From: Eubacteriales bacterium
GTDB taxonomy: Bacteria > Bacillota > Clostridia > Lachnospirales > Lachnospiraceae
Length of the DNA stretch: 64,000 bases
Assembly: GCA_030524135.1 (NCBI GenBank)
Contig: JAUNHA010000006.1
Span: 2,087 to 66,086 of the forward strand
Direction: 5' to 3'
In this document: positions 31,172 through 63,513 of the stretch, in pieces
Layout: every line of letters begins with the position of its first letter
How positions within the stretch are numbered: position 1 is the stretch's first letter
Notes under the pieces: generated by a model
What the model was told of the DNA's origin: nothing
What the model saw: the letters and a program-made list of their open reading frames with translations, nothing else
The model's database searches: none
Program-made: the position numbers and the translations under genes

Positions 31172-31346
31172 ATCAGATAGGCAACGGCGTGTGTCTATCC
31201 AAGCGCAGAAGCGTAACAGCGTACCGGAATGCCTTGTTATGTGGAGCTTTCGAGAGGGGTTGTGCAGTGAAACCTCAAACCGGAGTAGGTATTAGCCGAA
31301 AGAAAATGCTCATTACCGTCCTGCATTTGCAGGACGGTTTTATTTT
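31172..31346 (+). ncRNA. candidate small RNA of about 175 nt (class unknown) downstream of hpf
   Basis: It is bounded by the consensus promoter and a strong intrinsic terminator. No RBS-preceded ORF is present, and the next gene is convergent. Confidence 0.5.
31315..31346 (+). terminator. rho-independent terminator
   Basis: 10-bp stem ACCGTCCTGC (31315-31324) / GCAGGACGGT (31329-31338) followed by TTTTATTTT. Confidence 0.85.
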
Positions 31347-40087: not shown

Positions 40088-41503
40088 CTAGATCACTTTA
40101 AAGCATTTCCATGTTCCGCCTTTAAAACGAAGCTGGAAAATAATCCCTCGTACCGTCCAGTCCAGACACATGGCACAGGCGATTCCCAGCACGCCAAGCT
40201 TCATCCAGATGCCGAATATCACGGAAAATACCAGACGGATACCAATCGTCGTAAACAGGGAGATCACCGTGGTAAACGCCACGTCTCCCGTCGCGCGAAG
40301 CCCTTTTCCAAGCGGATCGGCAAAGGGGAATACGAGGGCGCTGAACACATTGTGTATGAGAACCAGCAGCACCACCAGCCGCTTGGTTTCATCCGCAAGC
40401 GTATACAATCTCATCACAAAAGGCACGGCTGCAAAGATCAGTCCGTTCCATACGCAGGCAAATATCAGCGTTATTTTCATCAGCCTTTTAAAATAATATT
40501 CCGCAGCCGGAATATCCCCCGATCCCATACACTGTCCGATCACAGTGATGAATACCGGTCCCATGGTCACGCAGACCAGTGCCGCTACTGACCAGATGGA
40601 CTGTGCCACACCGTTTGCCGCGATCTGATAGGTTCCAAAGAGCGCTGCCACACTGCTGAGCGCTACTTTCACCAGCTGGAACACACCGCTTTCCAAGCCA
40701 TTCGGAATTGCGATCCGCAGAATCCTGTACTGCAAGTCTTTTTCGATTCTGAAAATATAGTGAAGCCCATACCGGACCGGGTTTGTCTCCGAAAAGCACA
40801 GCACAGTAATTACGACTGCTGTAAAGGCGCGGGATACAAGAGACGGCCATGCCACACCTGCCACTCCGGCATGCAGGACAAATACGCCGATGCAGTTTCC
40901 CACGATATTGATTACATTCGCCGCGATGGAAATGTTCATCGTCGTGCCGGTCTTTCCAAAGCTCCGGTAAAGTGCTGCGCCCGCATTATAGACGGCAAGC
41001 GCCGGATAGGAATATGCTGAGATCCTCAGATATGTCACACAGGCCTCCATCACATCGTCCTCTACCTGTCCGAACATCAGCCGCATCAGACTTTCATTGA
41101 CCAGCAGCACGACTGCAGTTATCATGGCGGAAAACAGCACCGAAGACAGAAAAAGCTGGCTGGCAGCCTCTCCCGCCCTGTCATTTTCCCGTCGTCCAAT
41201 ATACTGGCTTATGACCACCGCACCTCCGGCAGCAAGCGCTGTAAACAGGTTGATAAAGATCGTATTGAACGCGTTGACCAGTGACACTCCGGAAACATTC
41301 GCCTCACCGGTAAAGCCGACGATAAAAATATCCGACATTCCCACAAGACTGATCAGAAGCTGCTCCATAAACAGCGGAATGATCAGATTTTTCAGATCCC
41401 AGTCAGAAAACAGGGCATTTCCGCCTGTCGCATTTTTCTTTGGCATTTTTTTCTCTGATACATTTTTAACTGATACATTTTTCTCCGGTACGTTTGCTGA
41501 CAT
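40088..41503 (-). CDS. MATE family efflux transporter
   Basis: 471 aa with 12 predicted TM segments and a MATE-like repeat pattern. Confidence 0.8.
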   Translation of the reverse strand: MSANVPEKNVSVKNVSEKKMPKKNATGGNALFSDWDLKNLIIPLFMEQLLISLVGMSDIFIVGFTGEANVSGVSLVNAFNTIFINLFTALAAGGAVVISQYIGRRENDRAGEAASQLFLSSVLFSAMITAVVLLVNESLMRLMFGQVEDDVMEACVTYLRISAYSYPALAVYNAGAALYRSFGKTGTTMNISIAANVINIVGNCIGVFVLHAGVAGVAWPSLVSRAFTAVVITVLCFSETNPVRYGLHYIFRIEKDLQYRILRIAIPNGLESGVFQLVKVALSSVAALFGTYQIAANGVAQSIWSVAALVCVTMGPVFITVIGQCMGSGDIPAAEYYFKRLMKITLIFACVWNGLIFAAVPFVMRLYTLADETKRLVVLLVLIHNVFSALVFPFADPLGKGLRATGDVAFTTVISLFTTIGIRLVFSVIFGIWMKLGVLGIACAMCLDWTVRGIIFQLRFKGGTWKCFKVI

Positions 41504-45693: not shown

Positions 45694-46158
45694 CTATTCA
45701 GAAATTTCTTTTTCGTACAGGACCCGGTCTTCATCCTTAAATACATTGAAGACCACCCGGTCAATTTCCGCCTCATGCTCCTCCAGAAACCGGCTTACCG
45801 TGCGCACGGCGATTCTTGCCGCCTCGTCATTCGGGAAATGAAATTCTCCAGTACTGATACAGCAAAATGCCACAGACCGGAGCCTTCTCTTCACACAGCA
45901 ATCCAGTACACTCCTGTAGCAGTTCTCCAGATCCTTTCGCAGACTGTCCGTAAGGTTCCCTGTGACGATTGGTCCTACTGTATGAATGACATACTTTGCG
46001 GGAAGATTATAACCCTTTGTCAGCATTGCCTGACCGACAGGCTCCTCATAGCGCTGACCATACTGGATCCGTTTACGGTTCATCTGATGGCTGCACTCCG
46101 CCCGCAGTTCGATTCCTGCCGCGCTGTGAATGGCATTCCCGACCCCTATCCGAATCAC
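45694..46158 (-). pseudogene. macro-domain ADP-ribose hydrolase gene lacking its 5' part
   Basis: Homology begins abruptly at ...NAIHSAAGIELRAEC... and continues through YVIHTVGP and ISTGEFHFP. An in-frame TAA lies two codons upstream of the track start. The expected GDIT...VDAIVNAAN N-terminal region is missing. Confidence 0.75.
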
Positions 46159-47956
46159 ACATTAGATCAGACCTGATATCTGCTGATACATCCGGGGGTA
46201 TGTAACCGGCCGCGCCGAAGAAAGATGAATAGTCATCCTCCGGGCAGCCTTTCAGGTAAATATGGCAGACGGGAACACCATCTTTATAAATAATATACAC
46301 CTTTTCGATAAGAACTTGCAACAGAGTTACAAGCACTTCCGGCGTGGCTTCCGCAGCAAACTCTTTAAATGATTTCAGCTTTTCCCTCACGCCCACCAAA
46401 TCCTTTGTGATTTTCGCGTGCAGCATATCTTCCTCTGATAATTCATTCAACAGCCGCTCCTTCTTTTCCAGCTCAGCAGACATCACAGCTATATCATTCT
46501 GAATGAACTTTCTGATTGTCATATCAGCTTCACGCATATTCCTTACCTGAGCAGCAATGTCGTTTTTCAAACTGCCGATAGACGCTTCCAATTCCCTGAC
46601 TTCCTGCTCGTTGGTGTTATCCTTTATCATAGCTGAAAGTCTTGTCTCGAAAAGCTCTTCTGCATATTCGTTGTTCCTGTCACTCAAGTCTGCTATTTTT
46701 GAAACGACAAATTCATCCAGAATAACTCCATCTATTGCCTTGAACTGGCATTCCTTCTTTCTGAAACCTGGACACACATACTTAAATCTTGGTTTTCCGT
46801 TCTGCCACCGCCCTGATTCCGGCACAACTTTTAGCCGCTTTCCACAGTGAGGGCAAAAAATCAATCCTGCCAAAAGAGCGTTCGTCCTGCGATGCGGTCT
46901 GTTATATCGCTCTGCAATCGTTTCTAATAAATCCTGTGCCGCAATCCATGTGGCTGATGATATCATCCCCTCATGCTTTCCAACCGAAACGATCCACTCT
47001 TCCACTGGCTTCCGCTCTGTCGCTTTCACAAATCTGGGGTGAAAAAATGTCGAATTCTCATCTTCCAATTTCATTTGATCAGTCTTGTTATAAGCAGAAA
47101 TTCCGTGCAGACCATCATAATCCGTTTCATCTCCCGAGATATTTGCGCCCTTATCCATAAAAAACAGGTAAGCTTCTCTGTCTGCCGTGCAGTAAATAGG
47201 ATTTTTCAGGATATCCTTAACTGCCAGCATTGTAAATGCTGCCCCATTTTTAGTTCTATACTCCCGATTCAATATTGTCGCGGTTGCATTCAGCGAGCGG
47301 GTATCCAAAAAAGTCTGAAAAAGCTTTTTTATCAATATCCGTTCTTCGGGAATCGGAACCAGAAAACTCACAGCACTTTTATTCTTCCCACTTCCTGTCC
47401 CTACTCGTTCCTTCGTAAATCCTGTAGGTGTTGTACCACCCATCCATCGACCATCCTTTGCCAGTTCCATCAGATTATCCTGAATTCTTTCTGTAAGGAT
47501 GTCTCGCTCAAACTCTGCAATTATAGCCAGAACCTGAATGATGATTTTTGAAGTGCTGATTTGCGTATTTATATTGTTTGAGCATACCAGCAAAATCACA
47601 TCCCGTCGTTCCAGATACTCAAGGAGCCTCATCAAATCCGATGTCTTACGGCTGATGCGATCCAACTTATAACATGCAATCGCTTTGATCTTTCCTGCAT
47701 CTATATCCCTAAGCATCCTCTGAAAATCCGGACGGTCGGAATAATAACCGCTTAGACCTTTATCACTGTATTCCAAGAACTCATACTCTTCAGGAAGATT
47801 CAACTGACTTGCCGCATAATCTTTACTTTGCTTAATCTGGACGCCAATGCTGTCTCCCTTATTTGTAATCACGGATTTTCTGCTGTAAACTGCTACCTTC
47901 CGATCATCTGCCAGCAGTGTGGTCCTTCTCTTTCTTTTTGTAATCACTTTGCTCAC
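46073..47956 (-). CDS. large serine recombinase
   Basis: 627 aa with a GTG start after AGAGGAAAGGA. Resolvase-type N-terminal domain (VAVYSRKS...), recombinase domain, zinc-ribbon (CPHCGKRL...YVCPGF) and coiled coil. The last ~85 nt overlap the macro-gene remnant in another frame. Confidence 0.9.
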   Translation of the reverse strand: MSKVITKRKRRTTLLADDRKVAVYSRKSVITNKGDSIGVQIKQSKDYAASQLNLPEEYEFLEYSDKGLSGYYSDRPDFQRMLRDIDAGKIKAIACYKLDRISRKTSDLMRLLEYLERRDVILLVCSNNINTQISTSKIIIQVLAIIAEFERDILTERIQDNLMELAKDGRWMGGTTPTGFTKERVGTGSGKNKSAVSFLVPIPEERILIKKLFQTFLDTRSLNATATILNREYRTKNGAAFTMLAVKDILKNPIYCTADREAYLFFMDKGANISGDETDYDGLHGISAYNKTDQMKLEDENSTFFHPRFVKATERKPVEEWIVSVGKHEGMISSATWIAAQDLLETIAERYNRPHRRTNALLAGLIFCPHCGKRLKVVPESGRWQNGKPRFKYVCPGFRKKECQFKAIDGVILDEFVVSKIADLSDRNNEYAEELFETRLSAMIKDNTNEQEVRELEASIGSLKNDIAAQVRNMREADMTIRKFIQNDIAVMSAELEKKERLLNELSEEDMLHAKITKDLVGVREKLKSFKEFAAEATPEVLVTLLQVLIEKVYIIYKDGVPVCHIYLKGCPEDDYSSFFGAAGYIPPDVSADIRSDLMCDSDRGRECHSQRGRNRTAGGVQPSDEP

Positions 47957-48261: not shown

Positions 48262-49041
48262 TCAGAACTTCATCGGCAACGCTGTCTTGGAGCTCGCCCC
48301 ATTGTAGATCAGGAACACCTGCATAAGGTATTTCTTACTTGCCGGAAACGAATTGCCGATAGCGGCAGCATCGCGGTAAATCTTCTGCGGGTCTTTCTCC
48401 CGGAGCTTCTTGACCAGACGCTTGCGGTTGTATTCGCCTTTATAAAGATCAATGAACTGGGAGAGACCCAGCATATTTTCTTTGCGGAAAGTGTTCGGCT
48501 CACCATCCCATGCTTCCAACAGAATGTTCAGCACTTCCTGATATTCCTCTATTCCAATCTTCTGGAAAATCTTAAAAGCGGTGCTGACGCAGGCAATGCG
48601 CCTGCACCCCAGCTCCTCGCCGTAGTCCAGCCGGAGGCCGACCGCCTCCGTTGCTCTCTGAAACGATATCACCACTGGGTCGCCCGCACAAATCAGTGCG
48701 CGGATTTTTGCCCCTGCCGTGAGTTTGGAAGATTCGCCGGTCTGCTGCGCAAAAAGCGTTGCTTCGTCGCTCTCTGTCATACCAAAATAGACCTTGCACT
48801 TAATCATCAGGTCTTCCCCGTGATTACGGCTCTTTCTGGCTGCAATGGTGTGCTGACCGTCAAAGACATAGTAGTGACCGTTGCGGAAGCTCACCTTTGG
48901 TTCGTTTGCAATATGTTCATTGAAGTTTTTAACGATACGATGTACTTTCTCCATACTCAATTCCCGCTGATAGGTCTCTCGCGGAATTTCCAGTTCCGCA
49001 CTGTTGATAGACATAATCTTATACTTTTGATTGCTGCTCAT
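48262..49041 (-). CDS. ParB/Srx-fold protein of the DGQHR/DndB/DUF262-like type
   Basis: 259 aa. The YQRE motif followed by VFDGQHTIAA compares with the YQR...DGQ(H/Q)R signature of that clade. Confidence 0.55.
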   Translation of the reverse strand: MSSNQKYKIMSINSAELEIPRETYQRELSMEKVHRIVKNFNEHIANEPKVSFRNGHYYVFDGQHTIAARKSRNHGEDLMIKCKVYFGMTESDEATLFAQQTGESSKLTAGAKIRALICAGDPVVISFQRATEAVGLRLDYGEELGCRRIACVSTAFKIFQKIGIEEYQEVLNILLEAWDGEPNTFRKENMLGLSQFIDLYKGEYNRKRLVKKLREKDPQKIYRDAAAIGNSFPASKKYLMQVFLIYNGASSKTALPMKF

Positions 49042-50023
49042 TCCAAAGCCCTCCCTTCTTTATTCTCCGAAAGTAATCAATGCCCTGATCGGCAAGCTGT
49101 TTTATTTTCGCTTTCCCTGTTCTGCTTCTCACATGAACCGGATAAGTCTCTCTGCAAAGGTTCCACCGGAAGATCATATCCTCAAGCGCGTCATTCATTT
49201 CATAAATCATACTGCCCTCTGTGGCACCCGCGACACCTTCCGAGTGAACCATTCCTTCGGAGATTTCCTGAATCAGTTTTCGACTGACATTGTGTTCTGG
49301 CTGTCGTGGATTCACATCCCTATCATCCACCGTCATCCCTTCTGTTTGAATACATTGGTTCTGACCGCGTCGCACAGTCTTAGGCAAACAAAGCTGCTCC
49401 ACCAACTCACTTCGTTCAATCGGCTCTGCACTAATAATCTCCTGTACTTCTTTTTCTGTCGGTTTAATTCTCCCGGACAGAATATTCTGCCGGATGCCGG
49501 GTGATACATCATCGGCAGCATCAACCGCATTTGCGAATACTTCAGCCCGGATCACGGTATTCTTTCCGATGTTATGCTCTCTGGCAATTCGCTCACAGGT
49601 TTTCTCACCGTTCAAGTTCCCAGATTGGGAACTTGATTTTGTTTCACTCTTACGGTCGCCGCCATGAGCGGCTTTTTCCGCTTCATACTGTTTCCCGATC
49701 AGATACTTCCTTTGTTCCAAAGTCAGGTTCCTTCGTCCAAGCTGATTCTTGCAAATCCAGGCAAACGCATCAAAGCGGTTGTCGAACGCTTTCTCGTGAA
49801 TGTGATAGGGAATCTCCGGATGCTTCAGTAAAATCTTGAAGCGATTATGACCGTCCACGATAATTCCTTCCCATACAATAATGGCGTTCAGGATTTCTCC
49901 ATCTGCCAGAATATTCTCTTCCAAAGTACAGAACTCCTCCTGCGTTATAGGCGGAATCTTCTGTTCAAACTCCGGATCAATTCTCATTTCATTAAATTGC
50001 GTTGCCATCTGCTTTCTCACCAT
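49019..50023 (-). CDS. ParB N-terminal-domain protein with central HTH
   Basis: 334 aa. IIVDGHNRFKIL box and an HTH around CERIAREHNIGKNTVIRAE. Confidence 0.65.
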   Translation of the reverse strand: MVRKQMATQFNEMRIDPEFEQKIPPITQEEFCTLEENILADGEILNAIIVWEGIIVDGHNRFKILLKHPEIPYHIHEKAFDNRFDAFAWICKNQLGRRNLTLEQRKYLIGKQYEAEKAAHGGDRKSETKSSSQSGNLNGEKTCERIAREHNIGKNTVIRAEVFANAVDAADDVSPGIRQNILSGRIKPTEKEVQEIISAEPIERSELVEQLCLPKTVRRGQNQCIQTEGMTVDDRDVNPRQPEHNVSRKLIQEISEGMVHSEGVAGATEGSMIYEMNDALEDMIFRWNLCRETYPVHVRSRTGKAKIKQLADQGIDYFRRIKKGGLWNEQQSKV

Positions 50024-50426
50024 CCTTCCCGATGGAAATCCGTCGGTTACTTCTGCCTGTATTCTCCTCCAGGTAATATCCCAGCTGAATCTTCACAGCC
50101 TCATCGATACCCCGCATCTGTCCCTTGCTGACTTTTCCGAGATAACGGATGATGCAGCATTTATCACAGGTATCCAGCTGCTCTGCCAGCACCGTTGAAG
50201 GGCGTTCCAGACCTTTTGCTTTTCGGATGTAATAATGGGTAGGCTGGCACCTCTTCTTTTCCGTCCTGGATGTCAGCGGTGCTACAGTAATCGTCGGCGA
50301 ATAGAAGTTGCCGACATCATTCTGTAAAACCACCACCGGCCGCACACCGCCCTGCTTTGACCCCACAGGAATACCGAGGTTAGCCAGATATAAATCACCC
50401 CGGCGGTAAACCCAGTCTTGTTTCAT
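49992..50426 (-). CDS. PemK/MazF family toxin-like protein
   Basis: Trimmed to ATG 50426, 7 nt after GGAGG. RGDLYLANLGIPVGSKQGGVRPVVVLQND...TVAPLTS is the classic MazF/PemK N-terminal pattern. Confidence 0.8.
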   Translation of the reverse strand: MKQDWVYRRGDLYLANLGIPVGSKQGGVRPVVVLQNDVGNFYSPTITVAPLTSRTEKKRCQPTHYYIRKAKGLERPSTVLAEQLDTCDKCCIIRYLGKVSKGQMRGIDEAVKIQLGYYLEENTGRSNRRISIGKDGEKADGNAI

Positions 50427-50529
50427 GTTCATTCCTCCAATCTCCATAATGTTTATATGGATAAAGGCTGCCGGAGAGATGTGTAAATGCTGTTTCCCGG
50501 CAGCGCTTTCTTTCAATATGGTTCCTCTG

Positions 50530-50870
50530 TACTTTTTCTTATTACCCCAAAGGTATAGGATTTCTCACGAGCGGCAGTGTGCTTCACTGCTCCATTGGAA
50601 TCTAACCACCCCGCCTTCATCATGGCCGGGCCGCGAATTACGGAAGTCTCATTGTCCCTGTCCGGTGTCAGCACCACCGCCGGTTGCAACCCGGCATTTG
50701 CTTTTGCGATACCGCTATCGCCCCAAAGGGCATCATGGCGTGCAGCCGAAGGCTCGACCGGACAGGATTGTACTCGGAGAATGAGTATTCAGTTTTCAAA
50801 GAGCCCGCATGGACTGTTTGTCCTGCTGATTTCATTGTAAAAAAACGCATTTGATTTTTTTATGACCTCA
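50530..50870 (-). other. GC-rich, hairpin-dense non-coding region (candidate structured RNA or DNA site)
   Basis: Hand counts give 57-62 % GC over 50581-50760, against 32-48 % on the flanks. There is a 9-bp long-range complement (50657-50665 / 50758-50766) and local hairpins at 50706-50721 and 50679-50695. No credible ORF is present. Confidence 0.35.
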
Positions 50871-50904
50871 TCCACAAAAAACTTGCGTCATCTGCAAATA
50901 TCAC

Positions 50905-51192
50905 TTAGAGATTCATCGCCATGGCTTTCAGTCCTTCCGAGATCTGCAGCAACGCTCCTCTAATATTTTCCTTTTCTGCTTTTTTCCCAAGGACGAGATA
51001 GTCCAGTGACACTTCAAAGAACACGGCAATCTCAACCAGTGCGTCAATAGATGGAGTACATCTTCCCGACTCCAGTCTGCTGATTCTGGAAAAATTGATG
51101 TTCAGTTCCTCTCCCAGCTGTTCCTGCGTAAGATTCCTTCCCTGCCTTAACGCCCTTAACCTCCGTCCAAATTCTGCTGCATCGTAATACAT
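50905..51192 (-). CDS. XRE family HTH regulator
   Basis: 95 aa. FGRRLRALRQGRNLTQEQLGEELNINFSRISRLESG. Confidence 0.85.
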   Translation of the reverse strand: MYYDAAEFGRRLRALRQGRNLTQEQLGEELNINFSRISRLESGRCTPSIDALVEIAVFFEVSLDYLVLGKKAEKENIRGALLQISEGLKAMAMNL

Positions 51193-51565: not shown

Positions 51566-51805
51566 TTATTCGTGGGAATTATAAATTCCCGGTTCCTCCG
51601 CAACACATAAAATCTGCTCGCCAGCCGGAGCATAGATATCAAAACGATTGTGTCGCCGTCCCATAAAGGTTCTTACTGTCACCGCACGGCATCTGCTGCA
51701 CCGCAGCTTTATCATGCCATTTTTGTCTTTGTACCCCCGATTTAGCTTACCGCAGTTTGGACAATAAAAATCACAGGGTGTCCATAATTCTTCATATCCT
51801 GACAT
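51566..51805 (-). CDS. small zinc-ribbon protein
   Basis: Trimmed to ATG 51805 (RBS GAGGAGGAAA). Two CxxC pairs (CPNCG ... CSRC). It loosely resembles the Cys-rich KTR proteins of mobile elements. Confidence 0.55.
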   Translation of the reverse strand: MSGYEELWTPCDFYCPNCGKLNRGYKDKNGMIKLRCSRCRAVTVRTFMGRRHNRFDIYAPAGEQILCVAEEPGIYNSHE

Positions 51806-52063
51806 CACTTTCCTCCTCATATCCGGAATATTTTTCGTCCTGACAGAATAAGGGAAACAAAATCCGTCGGATCGTGATTGGAAGCCCGAATTCTAACATC
51901 AAACCGGTAGTTTTCCGTCCTGCTCAAGGCAGCCTGCCGGTTACTTTATCGGGCTTCAGCGCCTGTTGAACGACAGAGAAAAACAAAGAAATATTTGCAT
52001 TGCCTTCTGATTCTCACATTAAACATCAAACATCGCGAATAAGTCTTTTCTTCGCTTTCTCTA

Positions 52064-53854: not shown

Positions 53855-55302
53855 TTATCGTTTTCGATATTTCCGTCCTTTCGTGGTACCGTTGTCCTCC
53901 AGCAGTTCAAGCTGCACCATGGCACGAAGCAATTCTTTTGTCCGGGTTTCCCTCACATCAAGAACCGCTACAATATCCGCTACATTATGCCATGCTCCAT
54001 CATTCAGGAAGTCCAGAATCTTATTATATTGCGCCTGTGTTTTGGCGGACACATTTTTTCTGGCGCTTTTTTTGTGAAAGAAAGCGTCAGAATCGTTCTG
54101 TCCGGATCAAACTGTTCCTCTATAATCGGTTCTGTCCAACCCTCATCTTCCCACATGTTAAAGATGTTCGGAACGCCGCTTCCGGCACGTTCTCCAATGT
54201 TGATAAGGTTGAACATTTTCATTAGTACCTTATTTCGAGGGTCAGATTCCCCGCCTCTGCGCATCTGTTCCTTTCCGGTTCGGATGTATCCGGGATTCGC
54301 AAAAACCAGCTTATCCGGCTCCTTACGGATCACAACACCTCGTACACCGTAAAAATCCGCGTTCGTGAGGCAATTCGCCAACGCCTCTCTCAGTGCTTTA
54401 TGCACTGGCGTGTCATCAATCCGGTCACCACCCTCCATTCGAAAAGGCACCTTCACATCCTTGATGAGCTTGTTATAAACCCGAAAATAGAAGTCGCAGA
54501 TATTTCCAGACCATTCCCCGGAACTGGATTGAAGGCGATCCGTCCAGCGAATTGCCGGATCTAACATCTCCCGGTAATCCAGAAAGTATTCCGGGAAATG
54601 CCGGACAATGTTATATTCGTTTCCGAACATCAACATACCTGCCGCTGTAGGATGCAGCCGCTTATCCTCCGACGAAACCGCTGCCGCCCCTATACTACGG
54701 AGGTATTCCTCATCGTTTAGTCTCTCAAAGGGATGGCCCGCTTTCAGCGTTCTATGCCTGTTTCGATAACCCTGAATTGTTTCTTTATTAAGGTCAGAAA
54801 GCTCTGCATCGTTCAGCACATCCATGTCTACCGTATTTTCTTCCTGATCCCGCAGCATGGCCTTAACCTGAAGCCTCGTGCATTTATAATCCCCGGAATG
54901 TATCCTTCGGTATGTGCCACCAAACAGGTCATTGTTGATATATACCGGCTTCTGACTTCTTTTTGCCCTTGGAACTTCAATTGCAATGATCACATCATCA
55001 TTCACTTCATAGGCCGTTACATTTGATTCCGACAGTAGATTAAGGCTTACCTTATTTTGGTTGTGCAGCAGATTCCACAGGTTATCCAGTAACTTCTCTT
55101 TATCTGCCGCTTTCAGCCCAGTGGGCTTCCAATGCTTATCATCCAACTCCTCAACGCCCAGAATAATTACTCCGCCATAGGTATTCGCAAAGGCAGAGTA
55201 GGTCTCCCAGATATCATTCGGAAGACCGCCTCTGGCCTTTTTCACTTCCCTGCGGTTATCTTCCTTGTATTTGTCAAATTTTTGAATATCAAATAACGGC
55301 AT
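53855..55302 (-). pseudogene. Schlafen/AlbA_2 + HATPase_c_4 + wHTH regulator-like ATPase gene, frameshifted in an A7 run
   Basis: ORF 54004..55302 covers the AlbA_2 region (...AFANTYGGVIILGVEE) and the HATPase region (REALANCLTNADFY...FANPG). ORF 53855..54052 is its wHTH tail. On the coding strand, an A7 run (T7 at 54067-54073 on +) separates the frames, and an 8th A would join them as ...FTKKSARKNVSAKTQAQYNKILDFL... Confidence 0.75.
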
Positions 55303-55494
55303 TGAATAGCCACCTCCTGTTATAGGACTTTTTTAACAAGTACTACGCCGTCAGATCAATCTTCTTCTCGACAATCCACTCAAACACACGGCTGCACTCA
55401 TCCGACAGCTCGTCTCGGAAAACATAACTTTGATGCCAGATTGATGATCACACTGTCACCACTCACTTTGTCATACAAACGGCTTCCCCAAAAG

Positions 55495-58005
55495 TCATAA
55501 GGGTTTTAAAGATAAATAATGACATAAGTCTAGTGCGAACATCTGCTTCCTTGCTACTGAATGCATTCCGGTCATCAAATCGCTTCTTAAAACAGCAACT
55601 AACCCGTTTCGATTACTATAAACGAAGCACCCCTGCATCAGTTGGCGAATAGCTTTTCTATCGTTGTTGATTAACACTTTCATTTTCAACGCTTGTTCAA
55701 TAGCCGAGCCAGCCGTCAGCTCTTCACTCATATAACTTGCAATGATTGGTGCCAATTCATCTGAAATTGGATATTTTCTAAAATATGCAGATGTAAAAGT
55801 TTTACGAGTATTATCCTCTCGCGCAATATAATCATAACTATCCACAAATGCCTTATCTTTTTCTTTGTGCAAGTCTGGTATGGTATTGTCTCTTAACGCC
55901 TCCACACATTTTATTACCGAGCTACACCTTCTTTTAAAATAGCCATTACCAATTTTATTCGCTCTCTTCAAATAGGAGATTAACTTATCGTACTCATTAC
56001 AATATTTAATCAATTCCATGCATGGCCGAGGCGTTCCCTGTGTACTAAAGGCCGAAACAACAAAAGGCCATATTTGCTGTGCAGTGAAGAATTGCGCATT
56101 TTGAAGAATACCTGCTTTATTAACACCCAGAGCAAACAAGTCAAGCAGAAAATCATCTATCGGCAAATCCAAGCGATTCTGCTCAAACCGAGTATTTGCA
56201 GATAGAACGTCTTGATTAAACTCTGCAGGTATCCCCGTTAAAGTTCGTTTTATATTCTGAATATCTATAGGTAACGCATTAGGATCATTAGGCGCTATTC
56301 TAACCGGCAATCCCTCCTTCCCGCCGCGATTCTTAAGCAAGTAGATACTATGAGCGTTTTCTAATGTCTCCACAAGATAACTAACATCGTTCTTAGTCGG
56401 AGGAATGATTGTCAGTTTCTCCAATAGTGCCACCCATTCAGGTTTATCATCTGGAATATAGGGCATTATTAAATACATATTGCGAAGATATCCAACTTTG
56501 TCTTCATCCGATTTGGAAACTGCAATTCGTCTTGACAAATCTTCTATAATTACTTCTCGGTCTCGAACAGTAGATTCAGGTGCGGGAATGTTTTTCAAAT
56601 ACGCCTTTAATTTTTTCCCTTGTGATAGAAGGCTAAAAAACTGGTAAATATCATTTGCCGTAGTAACCGTAATATCGCGAGAACATCCTTGACCTGCATG
56701 GAGACCATTCGCTCTCAGTGTTTGTAAAATAGTAAATTTATTTACATATGACAACAAATTTGCTTTTTGTTCTGCATTTGTGTTTTTATCTTTCCAAATA
56801 AAATCGAACTCGGGAGATCCTTTTGAGATTCCCGCCTTGAACTCTTTAAGAACTTCTGTGCCAAATTTATAAACATCAGATTGAATATCTCCCTCTTTAT
56901 ACATTGCCTGGATTCCCTTTGCTTGTACAAGACACGCTTTTATTACCAACTCAACAGAAGCTCCCAAAAGGCCAATTATCGGAGCATACTTTGTTTCTTG
57001 ATGCTTAGAACGACAAGCTGTAGGAATTGACAGTCCGTATAAGGCCAAGAGATAGGATTCGATTCCACCATACAAAATCGGAATCGCTTTACTTTTCATA
57101 AACTGCGGCATACAATCCTTCCCGTGGGTCCCCTCAAAACGGTCCGGGTCAATCAGGGAGAGGAACAGGTGGAAATCGTCCTCTTTTCCATTATGAGGTG
57201 TCGCCGTCAGGAGCAAAAAGTTCTTTGTAATGTTAGAAAGCAGTCTGCCCAGAGAAAACCTGCGTGTATATTTTATCTCGCCACCCCAGATGGTGGCAGA
57301 CATTTTGTGTGCCTCATCGCAGACAATCAAATCCCATTCCGAGATTTTTAGCTTTTCCTGTATAGCATCGTTTCTGGCCAGCTTATCCAGACGGCAGATG
57401 CACAAGTCCACTTCGTTGAACACATTGCCAGTGGCCGCAGATTCAATTCTGTCGTTGGTCAGAATATCAAAATGTAAATGAAATTTCTGGAATAACTCAT
57501 CCTGCCACTGCTCCACAAGGCTTCCCGGCGAAACAATCAGGCAGCGTTTTAGGGAGCCACGAGCGATCATTTCCTTGATGAACAAACCGGTCATAATCGT
57601 TTTACCGGCACCCGGATCGTCTGCCAATACAAATCTTAGAGGGAGACGCGGCAGCATATCCTGATAGACCGCAGAAATCTGATGCGGCAAAGGTTCTACG
57701 GATGAAGTATGCACTGCCAAATATGGGTCAAATAAATGTGCAAGACCAATACGATACGCCTCTGAAGCCAAACGCACCTGATCCCCATCTGCATCAAAAC
57801 TCCATGGAAGATGACTATCTTTTACCTGAATGCTTTCTTCATCTGCTCGATAGAGCAACTGTGTTCCGGGAACACCCTTGCTATTTTTGTATGTAATTTC
57901 TATCACATTGGTTCCATACCATTGGACGGCTACCACATTAACAGGTTCATTCCCCGCTATTCCAGTCAGATGGCTACCCACTGTAATATCTTCAAGTTTT
58001 GCCAT
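55495..58005 (-). CDS. chimeric ORF: RapA/SNF2-like helicase N-lobe (aa 1-298) fused to a 538-aa region of unknown function
   Basis: The N-terminus has a Tudor/SH3-like segment, motif I DDPGAGKT, motif II DEAH and motif III LLLTATPHNG. After ...DPDRFEG the SNF2 pattern stops, with no helicase-C motifs IV-VI. GC drops from ~60 % (57121-57180) to ~38 % (57061-57120) at the junction. Confidence 0.7.
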   Translation of the reverse strand: MAKLEDITVGSHLTGIAGNEPVNVVAVQWYGTNVIEITYKNSKGVPGTQLLYRADEESIQVKDSHLPWSFDADGDQVRLASEAYRIGLAHLFDPYLAVHTSSVEPLPHQISAVYQDMLPRLPLRFVLADDPGAGKTIMTGLFIKEMIARGSLKRCLIVSPGSLVEQWQDELFQKFHLHFDILTNDRIESAATGNVFNEVDLCICRLDKLARNDAIQEKLKISEWDLIVCDEAHKMSATIWGGEIKYTRRFSLGRLLSNITKNFLLLTATPHNGKEDDFHLFLSLIDPDRFEGTHGKDCMPQFMKSKAIPILYGGIESYLLALYGLSIPTACRSKHQETKYAPIIGLLGASVELVIKACLVQAKGIQAMYKEGDIQSDVYKFGTEVLKEFKAGISKGSPEFDFIWKDKNTNAEQKANLLSYVNKFTILQTLRANGLHAGQGCSRDITVTTANDIYQFFSLLSQGKKLKAYLKNIPAPESTVRDREVIIEDLSRRIAVSKSDEDKVGYLRNMYLIMPYIPDDKPEWVALLEKLTIIPPTKNDVSYLVETLENAHSIYLLKNRGGKEGLPVRIAPNDPNALPIDIQNIKRTLTGIPAEFNQDVLSANTRFEQNRLDLPIDDFLLDLFALGVNKAGILQNAQFFTAQQIWPFVVSAFSTQGTPRPCMELIKYCNEYDKLISYLKRANKIGNGYFKRRCSSVIKCVEALRDNTIPDLHKEKDKAFVDSYDYIAREDNTRKTFTSAYFRKYPISDELAPIIASYMSEELTAGSAIEQALKMKVLINNDRKAIRQLMQGCFVYSNRNGLVAVLRSDLMTGMHSVARKQMFALDLCHYLSLKPL

Positions 58006-58014
58006 AACATTGAG

Positions 58015-58023
58015 CCCCCCCCC
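58015..58023. repeat. C9 (G9 on the coding strand) homopolymer between the XRE stop and the helicase-chimera start
   Basis: 9 C residues counted by hand. On the minus strand the sequence reads GGGGGGGGG-ctcaatgtt-ATG, so the tract occupies the RBS position of ORF 55495..58005. Confidence 0.9.
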
Positions 58024-58029
58024 ACTGCT

Positions 58030-58263
58030 TTATTTTTGCGTTTCCTGAGACTCTGGTGGCTGATCAGGAATCAATTCCATGATGTCATCGAATGTACAGC
58101 CCAGCACTTTACAAATGCTTACCAGCGTATCTGTGTTTACATTTTCCCCACGGTTCAGCTTATTGACTGTATATGTGCTGATATTAGCAGCAGCGGCTAA
58201 ATCCTTTTTTTTCATATCCTTGTCTATCAGGAGCTTCCACAATTTTTTATAGCTTACGCCCAT
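58030..58263 (-). CDS. XRE (Cro/CI-type) HTH regulator
   Basis: Trimmed to ATG 58263 (RBS AAGGAGAA). MGVSYKKLWKLLIDKDMKKKDLAAAANISTYTVNKLNRGE... Confidence 0.85.
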   Translation of the reverse strand: MGVSYKKLWKLLIDKDMKKKDLAAAANISTYTVNKLNRGENVNTDTLVSICKVLGCTFDDIMELIPDQPPESQETQK

Positions 58264-58907
58264 ATCGTTCTCCTTTTTTCGCCGAGTAAGTGGACACATA
58301 CTACTCTACATTATACACATCCAATGGCGGAGAAGCAATATTTAAATTGAGCGAAAGCTCAATTCTTTTTAGTTTTATCACAACTGTTATCAAATGTACG
58401 CTATACACGACAACCACCACAACAACTCTTTTGCAAGCAGGGCATAGGTGCTACCTATGCGTTTTTGCTTGTTGGGGAATACCTCCCCAATCCCCTCAAA
58501 GTACAATGCCTTTGGCACTGGCGGCGCATCCGTTCCGGACGCTTTTTAAACATTCACTCCAAATAAAAAGCTGAGGTGTAAATCCCCAGCCTAATCAAAA
58601 ATATTGAAGTTGCCATCCTGAACTGAACCATTCAAAGAACACTTACTCGCTATCCCACTTCAGGTTTTCCCTATGAAATCTGAATATTCTCTGATCAATG
58701 CCACCGATCAAAGCTCTTCATATAATTTACACATCATAATATGTTTTTCAACATTTTCATCGTCTATCTTGAATCCGGCATCCAAACGTACCCGTGCGCC
58801 TTGTTATAGAGGTTCTGCTAGGATTTCTCGTACTCATTATCTTTTAGTTTCTTCATTATGTATGCTCTTTTAGGACTCTGTTTGTTTTCCCCTTTTTATC
58901 CTGTATT

Positions 58908-60111
58908 CTAAAGTATATCTGCATAATATCTTCTGTTGATATTAGAAAAAATCACTTTGGCTGGGAAAAGCTTCATTCCCATTGCTGCCATTCCAACAAC
59001 ACTACATGCCCATTCCCTTAATTCATTCGGAAGTCGAAAGCTTGTCGGTTCTCCATCCTTTAGAATTGTTACTATTGGAATGAAATTTTTGTACACCCCC
59101 ACCGATAATACATTAAAAGTTTGAGAACCTTCATGTAACGACAAAAGAGGTTGCTTTCCCGAATCAAAATATACCCTCCCGCCCCTTTTATTCAGAAATG
59201 ATTCTTCATCGAAGGGAATTACAGGCTCAATAGGCAATTTGTTTCTTCTGCATTCAAAATATCTTGCTGATTGCTCACAAGCAAACGCATTATAATATTC
59301 ACCTTGCATATCTATGTCAGATCGAATCTGTTCTGCAGATTCAAAATGATTCATAAAATTCAACAGAGCATTGAATGTAACCAAATCATCCGAATAAATA
59401 CCGGGCAGGTTGGTATAGTTCGCTCTGACAAGTGCGTTTCTGAAAGACCAAGCGTTCTCTGCAAAAATATCATTAGTAGCTGAAAAGCCGAGGGTTCTCA
59501 AATACTTGATAAAGAATACCGCTGTGGTTCTTGTGTTGCCTTCTCCGAAGATATGGATTTGCCATAACCTCGAAACAAAGACTGCAAGATGATGAATAAT
59601 TTCTTCCATCGAAAGTCCTTTGTAGCTAAAGTCTTTCTCCTGCGAGAAATCATATTCAAGGGTTGCTCTCAGTTCCGAAGCGCTGCCATAAAGGACAGTC
59701 GCTCCGTCAAGCACCCATTCTTTTTTGTGATATTGTAATCTCTTATCTTGCCTGCGTGTTTATAGATACCCTGAAACAGCTTTCGGTGGATAGAGATATA
59801 CTCGGGGAGAATGAAAAAGCAGTTTCCGAAAGTATCTGTGCGATACGGGATGATACCTTATCCGCTTCTTCTGTACGCTCGTCGTCCGACAAATGTGTCG
59901 GTCTTTCCTCATAATAGCTGTCTATGAGATTTTGCGCTTCTTTTATTGTAATTTTCCCCTCAATATTTTGAATGGCCGTATCAATCAAATATTGGGAAGG
60001 TTTCAGTCCGTCCACCGCCTGAAGTCCGATTGCCGTACTCCACGCATAGCCTTTGCTGAGTTTATCCGGCTCAGACTCCTTCAGATATTCCTTAAATGGG
60101 TCTTTATTCAT
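58908..60111 (-). pseudogene. Fic family (AMPylase-type) gene with two frameshifts and a non-canonical 3' end
   Basis: ORF 59743..60111 is the typical N-terminus (MNKDPFKEYLKESEPDK...AIGLQAVDGLKPS). ORF 58908..59714 carries the Fic motif HIFGEGNTRTTA. The segment joining them reads in a third frame: ...PEYISIHRKLFQGIYKHAGKIRDYNITKK... The shifts are at the G4 run 59804-59807 and the T6 run 59721-59726. Confidence 0.8.
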
Positions 60112-60137
60112 CTTATTTCCTTATTTTCTTTGCTTTT

Positions 60138-60857
60138 TTAATCCGTCAGCAACCTGCTTAGCAGTTGTTTTCTATTATTGATAAACATTTCCGTTATTTG
60201 ATAACTGTCCGTATCTTCATACGAGCAAGTATGCAGCTTTCCATCGTCAAATGTCAATATCTCTGCGTCCGGCAGACCTAACAAAATCGGAGAATGTGTT
60301 ACGATAAAGAATTGCGAACCTTTTTTCGCACATTCATAGATTTCAAGCAATAGCGTTAATTGTCTTTGCGGCGACAAAGCTGCTTCAGGCTCATCGAATA
60401 TATAAACTCCATCTTCCTTTAGCTGACTCTGTGCGATTGCAAGAAAACTTTCCCCGTGTGATTTTTCGTGATACTTTTCCGATGGGTGTTCAATATCAGC
60501 ATATTCTTCTTCCATAGTCGCTACATTATAAAAACTTTCCGCCCGAAGAAAATATCCCCATTTTGCTTTGCGATACCCTCTGCCAAGCCGCATTGCTTCA
60601 CACAGTTCCGAATGTGAGTCATAAGTAGAAAAGCTGTAATTTTTTGTGCCGCCTTCAGGATTAAATCCATAGGCTATCGCAATAGCCTCCAGCAATGTGG
60701 ATTTTCCACTTCCGTTTTCTCCGACAAAAAAGGTAACAGGCTTACTAAAAGTCAGCTTTTTCAGTCCCCTGATAGCTTCAATTGACCTTAAATAACTTCC
60801 TCGTTCAATTTTATTCCAATCAATCTCTACTCCCTGAACAAAAAGATTATTCATCAT
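60138..60857 (-). CDS. small stand-alone ABC-type (AAA_21-like) ATPase
   Basis: 239 aa. Walker A GENGSGKST, signature-like SHGESF, Walker B IFDEPEAALS and H-loop THSP. It overlaps the upstream WYL gene end by 11 nt. Confidence 0.8.
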   Translation of the reverse strand: MMNNLFVQGVEIDWNKIERGSYLRSIEAIRGLKKLTFSKPVTFFVGENGSGKSTLLEAIAIAYGFNPEGGTKNYSFSTYDSHSELCEAMRLGRGYRKAKWGYFLRAESFYNVATMEEEYADIEHPSEKYHEKSHGESFLAIAQSQLKEDGVYIFDEPEAALSPQRQLTLLLEIYECAKKGSQFFIVTHSPILLGLPDAEILTFDDGKLHTCSYEDTDSYQITEMFINNRKQLLSRLLTD

Positions 60858-61837
60858 CTACCACTCCATTTATCGCTATCGACTCCCGAAGCATATTCTT
60901 ATACTGTTCTTTCAAGCTCTCCGGTGCAAGTATCTGCACCTTGCCGTTAAATCCAAACAGCCAGCCGAAGAATGTAGGACTTGCCGATACTTCGGTCTGT
61001 ATCCGGAACGAAGTCATATCATAGGCAAGGGTGGTAACATCTTCTCCGAAACGGTCAACCATCGTTTTCATCAGGCTGTTATCACAGCGCAAGTCTACCT
61101 TAACCTTTTCTCCGGGGAACATAAAGAATACTTCTTTCGTAAAGTTCTCAATATCAAAATCATCGGGCATTGGAAGAACTATTTTTTCCAGCATATCCGG
61201 TATCCCTGCAATGCGATCCACTCTGAAATTGATAACCTTTTGTTTCTTTTCGGAATAACCAATCACATAATAATAATCGCCGCTCCAAAGAAGCTTATAT
61301 GGACTGAGCTTATATACTTCTCCCTTGTTTTTCAGTTCTTTCTTCTTGAGTCCAGTGTAATCATAATACTGGAAGGAAATCTGTTTCCCAGTATTAATGG
61401 CATCGTTTATGGTGTCAATGATGTAGTAAATTTGCTCATTGTCCGGCTTAATTCGATTGACAACATAATTATTACGCTTGAGCTTTTCTACCTGTCCCCG
61501 GACTTGTCATCGTATGTATCTTCTCAATCAGCGCTTTGCTTTTCTTATCGGTAATCACTCTTGAGGACTCCACAGCGTCAATCAGCAGCTTTAACTCCGG
61601 CAATTCAAACTGCCGGCTTGCCACAAAATACTTACACTGCGTAGAATGAATAACCACTATATCCATTCCGAACTCCTGCAAGGCGGCAATATCCTTTGCA
61701 AGCGTTACCCGATGTGTCGATATATCATATTCATTCTTCAAAATATCCAATATTTGATTTGTAGTCAGAGTGTGTTCCTCATCGGTTCGTTCCTCTAAAA
61801 TTTTCTTTATATATAAAATTCTCGGTTTTACTTCCAT
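60847..61837 (-). pseudogene. WYL-domain transcriptional regulator gene, frameshifted
   Basis: ORF 61472..61837 is the wHTH N-terminus. The frame of ORF 60847..61266 stays open upstream to about 61490 and encodes ...QVEKLKRNNYVVNRIKPDNEQIYYIIDTINDAINTGKQISFQYYDYTGLKKKELKNKGEVYKLSPYKLLWSGDYYYVIGYSEKK... The frames meet at the C4 run 61496-61499. Confidence 0.75.
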
Positions 61838-62112: not shown

Positions 62113-63513
62113 CTACTCCAAATCCTCCTTCGGCATGATCCGAAACTCCTGTATCAGGAACAGAACCGACAGCGCAAAGGACAGCAGATCCGTCACCGGC
62201 TGTGCATAGGCGATTCCCTCCACTCCAAAGAACCGGGGCACGAGCAATAACAGCGGAATCAAAAACACAATCTGCTTTGAGAAAGATAAAATTGCTCCTT
62301 TTGCCACTTTTCCAATGGATGGGAAAAATGTCGCGCAGCATATCTGGATTCCATTTAAAAAGACACAGAACAAAAATACACGCATAAACGGAATCGCAAA
62401 CTGAAAATACAGGGGATCCTCATTGGCACCGCCGAACAGAGAGAGAATCGGCTGCGGAAAGATCTCAAAGATCACCCAGACTGTTGTGGAAATTACCACT
62501 GCCGTCTTCAAGAACAGCTTCACCGTCTCCCGCACACGCCGGAACTTTTTTGCCCCGTAATTATAGCTGCAGATCGGCTGCGCCCCATTGATCAGTCCAA
62601 TGATCAAAGCAATGAAGATGACATTAACCTTCATAACAATTCCGGCTACCGCAATGGGCGTGTCCGCTCCATAAACAGATTTCTCTCCATATATACGCAG
62701 GACGTTATTCAGCGTAACCTGGACGATCACATTGGAAAACTGGAAAAAAAACGAATTAAATCCCAGCTTACAGATCAATAATACATCCTTTCTCCTTGGT
62801 AGAAAATCTGCCAAAGAAAAATGAACTGACTGAAACCTTGGAAAGTACGCTACCAGTATCAGCGCGGAGATCACCTGACTGATCACCGTCGCCCACGCTG
62901 CACCTGCGATTCCCCAATGAAACACAAAAATAAAAATCGGATCCAGAATCGTATTTAACACCGCTCCCACCACAATGGCCATCATAGAATAGTTCGGACT
63001 TCTGTCTGCCCGGACGAGCGGATTGATTCCTGTTGAAAAAAGCAAAAACGGAATCCCCAGAGATGTAATTCCCGCATATTCCATTGCGTAAGGCAGGATA
63101 TTATCCGTTGCGCCGAACACCCGAAGCATTGGTTCCAGGAAAGCACGGACAAGTATGCAGATGATCACTCCGCATATAACCAGCGCTCCTGCGGCACTTC
63201 CCGCTATTTTCCTCGCTTTTTCCTCCTCTTTTCCACCCAGCTCCAGATTAAATCCGGCAGCAGAACCAAGTCCCACCATAAGCCCGATCGCCATGCAGAC
63301 CGTTGTCAGCGGAAATGCTACCGATGTCGCAGCATTTCCCAGCTTGCCCACACCCTGACCGATAAAAATCTGGTCGACAATATTGTAAAGCGCATTCACC
63401 ACGTTGGCAATGATTGCAGGAACCGCCAGTGAAAGCAGCAATCCGCCCAGCGGCTTTGTTCCCAATGGATTTGTCATTTCTTCTGATCTAGACATTCTCA
63501 TCTCTCCCTTCAC
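62113..63513 (-). CDS. MATE family efflux transporter
   Basis: 466 aa with 12 predicted TM segments. Its start overlaps the marR-like stop by 4 nt. Confidence 0.85.
   Translation of the reverse strand: MKGEMRMSRSEEMTNPLGTKPLGGLLLSLAVPAIIANVVNALYNIVDQIFIGQGVGKLGNAATSVAFPLTTVCMAIGLMVGLGSAAGFNLELGGKEEEKARKIAGSAAGALVICGVIICILVRAFLEPMLRVFGATDNILPYAMEYAGITSLGIPFLLFSTGINPLVRADRSPNYSMMAIVVGAVLNTILDPIFIFVFHWGIAGAAWATVISQVISALILVAYFPRFQSVHFSLADFLPRRKDVLLICKLGFNSFFFQFSNVIVQVTLNNVLRIYGEKSVYGADTPIAVAGIVMKVNVIFIALIIGLINGAQPICSYNYGAKKFRRVRETVKLFLKTAVVISTTVWVIFEIFPQPILSLFGGANEDPLYFQFAIPFMRVFLFCVFLNGIQICCATFFPSIGKVAKGAILSFSKQIVFLIPLLLLVPRFFGVEGIAYAQPVTDLLSFALSVLFLIQEFRIMPKEDLE

Follow-up and report, generated by a model that had tools for sequence, protein, structure and literature searches.

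The pemK RNA motif (Rfam RF02913) is one of the 224 candidates of the 2017 survey by Weinberg et al. (PMC5737381). The family is found in Clostridia and their mobile elements and is typed Cis-reg in Rfam, and no paper testing or discussing its function was found in the searchable literature. Here, a copy of this motif was analyzed in a 64,000-nt stretch of DNA from a Eubacteriales bacterium (Lachnospiraceae; contig JAUNHA010000006.1), referred to below as the window. It lies in a 478-nt gap between a gene for an XRE-family helix-turn-helix (HTH) protein and a gene for an endoribonuclease of the PemK/MazF family. The 61-nt Rfam motif is only the centre of a conserved leader of ~400 nt, located at about 50830–50427 on the minus strand. 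The constant feature among relatives is this structured leader at the 5' end of a recombination/partition operon of a Clostridial mobile element. The strand of all features of the locus, including the XRE gene, the gap, the PemK gene, its ribosome-binding site (RBS), the GC-rich bulge and the stems, is the minus strand.

In a cmscan search against Rfam 15, positions 50655–50592 (minus) matched RF02913 over the full model (1–61 of 61) with 65.4 bits, against a gathering score of 34.8 (E = 1.6e-9). An earlier note on this DNA, made from the sequence alone, had found no known RNA core in the gap, which proved wrong; the cmscan that it had proposed as a check gave a clear result. The structured RNA in front of the antitoxin-less pemK gene is an already catalogued candidate motif, and the Rfam match means that the core finding is therefore not new. 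As in the described family, three hairpins are closed by a U-A pair, and the element lies upstream of a pemK gene in the same orientation. It is a single copy in the window, its end lies 165 nt from the PemK ATG on the same strand, and this spacing is equal in most relatives. Within the core, 98.9–100% of the alignment cells are paired, with compensatory changes across 24 relatives, and the middle hairpin has 6/6 pairs changed on both sides. The conserved flanks of the motif are AAUGAUACUUC and AUGG. The difference from the described family is one of extent: the Rfam model covers 61 nt, whereas the window and its relatives embed the motif in the ~400-nt leader, which adds a hairpin at the 5' end, a 5' domain of several helices (~150 nt) and three hairpins on the 3' side; most of these elements covary.

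The dinG RNA motif (RF03082) gave a second match at the same site (50579–50653, minus), with 23.9 bits against a threshold of 46.9. The two RNAs agree in the 5' consensus AAUGAUACUUCCG and in hairpins one and two. However, the third element of dinG RNA differs from that of the window RNA, and the window locus has no dinG gene. The relation is one of resemblance, not of membership. RF03082 and RF02913 may be related families; they have no common clan in Rfam.

Covariation was evaluated in an alignment of 24 sequences (A2) and in a more diverse alignment of 30 sequences (A3), with a control in which the pairing partners were slid by 1–3 columns. For the whole hand-drawn structure (A2), 82% of the cells are paired, compared with 36–48% for slid partners. 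The covariation score is 0.368 versus about 0.10, and 0.368 was reached by 0 of 500 shuffles; such shuffle statistics are inflated by sequence relatedness, and the slid-partner control, which is fairer, is also clear. For the 5' domain alone (A3), 80% of the cells are paired versus 34–49% when slid, and 24 of its 30 pairs are changed on both sides. RNAalifold recovered helices outside the core, with 31/48 pairs compensated. On the gene-sense strand, G.U pairs outnumber A.C mismatches by 116:44. The fold energy beats shuffles on both strands (z of −2.9 and −4.0) and was discarded as a strand test, as it does not tell the strands apart. Taken together, the fold of the leader is conserved and belongs to the single-stranded form of the sense strand. 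The suggestion that the gap encodes a structured RNA is borne out by the RF02913 match and the covarying helices, its sense being that of the PemK gene.

In blastn comparisons of the 478 nt with the upstream regions of relatives, the first ~100 nt past the XRE stop show no sequence conservation. Conservation sets in sharply at ~50802 (CUUUGAAAAC, gap position ~103) and continues to the start codon. From 5' to 3', the leader and the region in front of it comprise the following features.

50827–50882, minus: promoter/operator region with two ~20-nt direct repeats, the GGTCATAAAAAAAT box and the −10-like TACAAT
50827–50846 and 50863–50882, minus: the ~20-nt direct repeats of the promoter/operator region
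50839–50834, minus: −10-like box TACAAT (TACAAT/TATACT/TAAACT in nearly all relatives)
50826–50807, minus: P0, 5' hairpin, sequence variable
50801–50779, minus: conserved box CUUUGAAAAC, found in almost all loci, and small hairpin Ha (GAAU-ACUC-AUUC)
50657–50766, minus: 5' domain closed by P1 and holding P3, P4 and P6
50766–50758 with 50665–50657, minus: P1, pairs changed on both sides 7/9 (A2) and 8/9 (A3)
50745–50742 with 50707–50704, minus: P3, pairs changed on both sides 3/4 (A2) and 4/4 (A3)
50740–50737 with 50675–50672, minus: Pk, candidate pseudoknot, 87–91% paired, almost no double changes
50731–50728 with 50723–50720, minus: P4, pairs changed on both sides 4/4 (A2 and A3)
50695–50691 with 50683–50679, minus: P6, pairs changed on both sides 5/5 (A2 and A3)
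50655–50592, minus: pemK RNA motif (RF02913), three hairpins closed by a U-A pair
50574–50590, minus: H7, hairpin GCAGUG/CACUGC, 5/6 pairs changed on both sides
50524–50553, minus: H8, hairpin CCUUUG/CAGAGG, 6/6 pairs changed on both sides
50463–50509, minus: H9, long hairpin GCUGCCGG/CCGGCAGC plus AAAG/CUUU, 9/12 pairs changed on both sides
50461–50443, minus: possible H10, AUCCAUA..UAUGGA, 0 pairs changed on both sides

The distance from the −10-like box to the 5' hairpin is ~8 nt in nearly all relatives, and 30/30 representative relatives have a P0-type hairpin directly 5' of the conserved box. Hairpin Ha is nearly invariant. The GGTCATAAAAAAAT box is common to the window and distant loci, and together with the direct repeats it is a candidate operator, to which the XRE protein may bind. 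It also stands 22 nt from a −10-like TACAAT in loci L061, L066 and L068, whose PemK is only ~54% identical. At the 3' side, the 18-nt loop of H8 is conserved (GGGGU..AAGA.AAAA.UA). Its GGGGU could pair with an AUCCC to form a second candidate pseudoknot. H9 is variable in sequence, contains a perfect 8-bp inverted repeat in the window and is not a clear intrinsic terminator.

Several of these helices had been read from the window sequence before. The 9-bp long-range pair of the earlier note is real, being a perfect inverted repeat of 10 nt (50657–50666 with 50757–50766), and it covaries in relatives, as do the GCCGG/CCGGC hairpin at 50679–50695 and the CAGTG/CACTG stem at 50574–50590. The GCGATA/TATCGC hairpin is present in the window, but its pairing is not kept in relatives, which retain only the AGCGRUA of its loop. 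Likewise, of the two motifs described as duplicated, CCCCAAAGG is found twice and CATCATGGC is readable twice, but neither 9-mer is conserved in relatives, and both are therefore probably incidental. Another recurrent motif, an (A/G)AUGA(U/A)-like box, occurs 3–4 times where the leader is conserved but unpaired (50740–50731, 50675–50667 and 50654–50647 in the window, where the second copy is CUGA) and in relatives also as GAUGAUUUCCC before H8. It could be a protein-binding or tertiary-contact motif. A K-turn formed from the AUGA boxes beside Pk was rejected, as the boxes lie at opposite helix ends. A long-range pair of UUGAAAA with a 3' UUUUCA was also rejected; it is limited to the L001 group and absent from the window and the other loci.

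Relatives were collected with an alignment of 17 PemK homologues, which yielded 80 loci in named genomes and 80 in IMG/VR. The named-genome loci are nearly all from gut or rumen Clostridia (Roseburia, Dorea, Gemmiger, Oribacterium, Peptostreptococcus and Lachnospiraceae), and RF02913 is present in 16 of the 17 PemK loci sampled from named Clostridia genomes. Cultured carriers include Roseburia inulinivorans DSM 16841 (L064), Peptostreptococcus anaerobius DSM 2949 (L037) and Dorea acetigenes (L007). With blastn, the 478 nt had no match in PLSDB and matched only five unannotated faecal contigs in a phage collection. To avoid circularity, leaders were also retrieved from IMG/VR independently of PemK, by a DNA pattern of the core followed by a profile filter. 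Among the 31 credible leaders obtained in this way, each with at least 1 kb of downstream DNA, 27 are followed on the same strand by a PemK homologue. The remaining four (L183, L168, L178 and L205) are confirmed RF02913 members with no PemK within the 4–11 kb retrieved. The possibility of several leader copies per element was examined and dropped: matches to the regular expression in L110, L163 and elsewhere were not confirmed by Rfam, and L110 and L116 have one real copy each. A truncated leader is found in Oribacterium sinus (L052, 3803–4000), with the box and Ha only and no Rfam core, before a C-terminally shortened PemK; this pair may be a decaying copy.

The first gene behind the leader varies. 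In the L001 group, the leader is followed by PemK, an Xis-like gene and a tyrosine integrase. The ParB-like gene comes first in L058, L073 and many IMG/VR contigs, where it is preceded by the whole leader, from the box through the 5' domain, core and H7–H9 to the RBS; the order in these loci is leader, ParB-like, DUF6551, PemK, DUF6870 and then serine recombinases, with two genes before PemK. In L183 and L168, the leader is followed by ParA and then ParB, and every conserved block of the leader is kept. In L178, it heads DUF6870 and then serine recombinases, and in L205 an Xis-like gene and then a tyrosine integrase, the 5' box being kept only in part in both. The operon behind the leader usually closes with a serine or tyrosine recombinase, and the leader is always oriented as the downstream genes and continuous with the RBS of the first gene. 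Since it heads operons with varied first genes, four of them without PemK in the DNA retrieved, the leader, and not PemK, is the constant. PemK is the usual but not obligatory passenger of the leader-headed operon.

The genes of the module in the window, with the gap and the RBS of the PemK gene, are as follows.

50905–51192, minus: XRE-family HTH gene, 95 aa (Pfam HTH_3/HTH_31, E = 3e-14)
50904–50427, minus: gap between the XRE and PemK genes, 478 nt
50438–50434, minus: GGAGG ribosome-binding site of the PemK gene
50426–50424 (ATG), stop at 49992, minus: PemK/MazF-family endoribonuclease gene, 144 aa (PF02452, E = 1e-25)
49019–50023, minus: ParB-like gene, 334 aa, no Pfam match (open reading frame, ORF; homologues directly follow the leader in other loci)
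48262–49041, minus: DUF6551 gene, ParB-CTPase-fold protein (PF20188, E = 2e-95; PHROG ParB-like)
46073–47956, minus: large serine recombinase, final gene of the module (Resolvase, Recombinase and Zn_ribbon_recom domains; PHROG integrase, E = 2e-94)

The MazF-like ORF starting at 50426 and its good RBS, both predicted from sequence alone, are confirmed by the PF02452 match and the GGAGG at 50438–50434. The 478 nt back to the XRE gene are non-coding, as had been claimed, and ORFs in the gap have no match in Pfam or NCBIfam. The GC-rich block inside the gap is also confirmed, with a GC content of 0.60–0.61 over 50600–50749 versus 0.38–0.45 in the flanking DNA. The 36-codon minus-strand ORF had been misplaced at 50538–50648; its true span is 50689–50513, with 58 codons from a TTG and 36 from an internal ATG. 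Downstream, the ParB-like gene overlaps the PemK stop by 32 nt, and the integrated element probably ends on one side at the large serine recombinase gene. The two ParB-fold genes (49019–50023 and 48262–49041) are adjacent, and the first carries a DGHNR motif. DUF6551 fusions of the ParB-CTPase fold have been reported to bind nucleotides in a 2025 preprint (10.1101/2025.10.10.680097).

The toxin itself is a conventional member of its family. Among proteins of solved structure, it comes nearest to S. aureus MazF, B. anthracis PemK and B. subtilis EndoA (E ~ 1e-25), and identity to S. aureus MazF is about 50%, judged by eye in a printed alignment. Its Arg29 (R29) and Thr52 (T52), which by our own comparison we take to be the counterparts of the E. 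coli MazF catalytic residues, are invariant in 17 relatives. In these respects, the window toxin resembles those of type II MazEF/PemIK (Kis-Kid) systems and is nearest to the clade of S. aureus, B. subtilis and B. anthracis MazF. Unlike them, it has no adjacent antitoxin gene and is one gene of a longer recombination/partition operon behind a structured leader. The earlier statement that no MazE-, PemI- or AbrB-type antitoxin gene lies upstream is borne out both in the window and in homologous loci. No leader ORF conserved in position or frame, and hence no normal protein antitoxin within the leader, was detected across 24 relatives, which argues from sequence that the antitoxin-less state characterizes this MazF/PemK family and not the window locus alone. 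The gene after PemK varies as well: it is ParB-like in the window, DUF6870 in L081–L084 and L058, and Xis-like HTH_17 in the L001 group.

The leader resembles known cis-acting leaders, such as riboswitches, ribosomal-protein leaders and the EAR and put antitermination RNAs, in its position at the 5' end of an operon, its conserved junction nucleotides and its covarying helices, and also in heading operons with non-homologous first genes. It differs from them in that no ligand, protein partner, terminator/antiterminator pair or RBS-sequestering helix was found for it. The region 50830–50427 (minus) is probably a cis-acting structured 5' leader RNA of the recombination/maintenance operon of a mobile element. 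The operon under its control would comprise PemK, the ParB-like protein, DUF6551 and the large serine recombinase, forming a module that occupies one end of a small mobile element integrated in the genome of a gut bacterium of the Clostridia type. Transcription would start just upstream of P0, near 50828, at a weak promoter, possibly under the control of the XRE protein encoded upstream. Some effector would bind the folded 5' domain and core and thereby determine in cis how much operon mRNA there is, how stable it is or how well it is translated.

As to the effector, a protein encoded by the element or the host is a tentative proposal, with a chance clearly short of even. Part of that chance belongs to PemK itself, a doubtful candidate taken singly, which would exert a feedback that replaces the missing antitoxin. 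Such feedback is attractive because these toxins have no antitoxin. UACAU, the cleavage site of the closest characterized MazFs, argues against it: the pentamer is absent from the window leader and not enriched in the operon (4 occurrences versus 4.5 expected), and it was rejected as a MazF self-target. A distant clade (L058 ~2230, L073 ~2120, L061, L066, L074 and L183) has a conserved UACAUA right 3' of H9, where the window clade has AUCCAUA (50461–50455). As UACAUA is restricted to that clade and also occurs in ParA-ParB leaders without PemK, it was dropped as a general mechanism. A small-molecule riboswitch, with which the leader shares a conserved covarying aptamer-like fold (a putative aptamer) in a 5' leader, is a similarly doubtful option, and a role without any effector, in stability, processing or antitermination, is rather unlikely. 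Processive antitermination in particular was rejected, as no minus-strand terminators that would need bypass lie inside the operon.

Several observations weigh against a cis-acting leader. No expression platform was found, as no minus-strand terminator was called and H9 has no U-tract in many relatives, and no conserved pairing that sequesters the RBS was found either, H10 showing no covariation. A scan for consensus sigma-70 sites found no full promoter, so transcription could alternatively begin ahead of the XRE gene. The inflation of the shuffle statistics described above belongs here as well. Finally, the frequent presence of PemK downstream (27/31) could reflect a direct relationship between RNA and toxin.

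A further reading would make the large RNA, with about 350–400 nt, at least 10 helices and a candidate pseudoknot, the functional partner of a whole MazE-less MazF/PemK clade, either as an inhibitor or as a dedicated cleavage substrate, with the pair gating integrase/recombinase expression in Clostridial mobile elements. This is unlikely; if true, the pair would be a MazF-based, RNA-controlled excision/maintenance switch distinct from type II and type III systems.

Somewhat less likely is a type III-like RNA antitoxin, in which the leader or a processed fragment of it would bind and inhibit PemK in place of MazE. Like the type III toxin–antitoxin systems ToxIN, CptIN and TenpIN, the window locus has a non-coding RNA upstream of an endoribonuclease toxin and no protein antitoxin, and ToxN has a Kid/MazF-like fold. 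The absence of any MazE/PemI/AbrB-type gene or conserved small ORF in all relatives, the variable gene after PemK (ParB-like, DUF6870 or Xis-like), the retention of R29 and T52, and the presence of PemK behind 27 of the 31 leaders retrieved without reference to it all favor this explanation. As in ToxIN, the toxin gene is also set apart from the structured part by a hairpin (H9). However, H9 is unconvincing as a terminator. The leader has no tandem repeat array (TRF found 0 arrays, the repeats being scattered and two-copy only), and the toxin is a true PemK/MazF (PF02452), not ToxN/AbiQ, CptN or TenpN, with no PADLOC match. The RNA forms one complex fold that is continuous with the RBS of whichever gene comes first. 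It lies immediately upstream of the toxin in the window, with no terminator called at H9, whereas two genes intervene before PemK in L058-type loci. Moreover, four Rfam-confirmed leaders head operons without PemK within 4–11 kb, although PemK could be encoded elsewhere in those elements. The earlier note had left the choice among a leader, an RNA antitoxin and a non-coding RNA of a mobile element; the structured leader is the favored reading, and the RNA antitoxin is disfavored by the absence of tandem repeats and by the operons with no PemK nearby.

More improbable again is a type II system in which the true PemK antitoxin would be the XRE protein, and the leader would be a regulatory insert with no relation to the genes on either side of it. 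Other toxin families do have antitoxins of the XRE type. In many distant loci, a co-oriented XRE homologue, often itself preceded by the 84-aa zinc-ribbon gene, ends 110–165 nt short of the leader, and the protein has weak, sub-threshold matches to the HTH antitoxin families Y4mF/HipB-like, MqsA and PezA. However, the nearest homologue is 2.5–2.8 kb off in the L001 group, and none was found in several loci (e.g., L036, L037, L050, L060 and L071). The best family matches of the XRE protein are phage and mobile genetic element (MGE) repressors, and it also has an RstR-like match under the NCBIfam cut-off. Furthermore, type II systems are not arranged around a structured spacer of 478 nt that has a −10-like box to itself. 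The XRE protein is likely the transcriptional regulator of the module, judging from its family matches, and not the PemK antitoxin.

Least probable is a DNA-level element, such as an origin of transfer (oriT), a recombination site, or a single-stranded DNA (ssDNA) promoter or origin of the mobile element, to which the location beside recombinase and ParB-like genes on a mobile element, the folding of both strands better than shuffles, and the statement in the 2017 survey that its method cannot separate ssDNA from RNA structures (PMC5737381) would lend support. However, the 116:44 asymmetry on the gene-sense strand rules out both a duplex site and the template strand, the fold is multi-helix with a candidate pseudoknot and not a long hairpin bearing promoter boxes, its orientation is always that of the downstream genes, whose RBS it abuts, and the 64-kb window has no relaxase or conjugation genes, so the origin or recombination site suggested earlier is disfavored.

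What is added here to a known RNA family is an extended, covariation-supported architecture and its operon context. The pemK motif is an orphan that is widespread in gut Clostridia and has been catalogued since 2017. The RNA to study is the ~400-nt leader rather than the 61-nt core; it belongs to an integration/excision and partition operon of mobile elements, not to the toxin alone, and the absence of a protein antitoxin appears to be common to the whole family of associated MazF-like toxins. Should recombinase or toxin expression be under the control of the RNA, this would bear on how gut mobile elements stay or move; if it controls neither, the locus is one more instance of a known candidate leader.

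Several such gut mobile elements carry defence genes, as the window element does. Its defence-type cargo lies upstream of the module at 54004–61266 (minus) and includes a Schlafen/AlbA_2 ATPase, an AriA/PtuA-like AAA ATPase, a WYL/WCX protein and a Fic protein matching PDC-S72. An SNF2 helicase in the cargo matches only the first 294 of the 1176 positions of HmaA (E = 4e-136). Genes for MatE-family transporters lie on either side of the presumed element (40088–41503 and 62113–63513, minus). Upstream of the XRE gene, an 84-aa zinc-ribbon gene (51566–51820, minus) is kept at 58–65% identity in the same relative place in L045, L056, L275, L180 and L213. About 19 kb from the pemK leader, a drum RNA (RF02958) is located at 31201–31314 (plus), with a full-length match of 86 bits against a threshold of 43; this small RNA is, like the pemK motif, an orphan described in the 2017 survey (PMC5737381). 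In three related elements, c-di-GMP-I riboswitches (RF01051, 56–58 bits) sit about 2.4 kb upstream of the pemK leader, at 1196–1271 in L047, 1261–1336 in L048 and 1257–1332 in L074.

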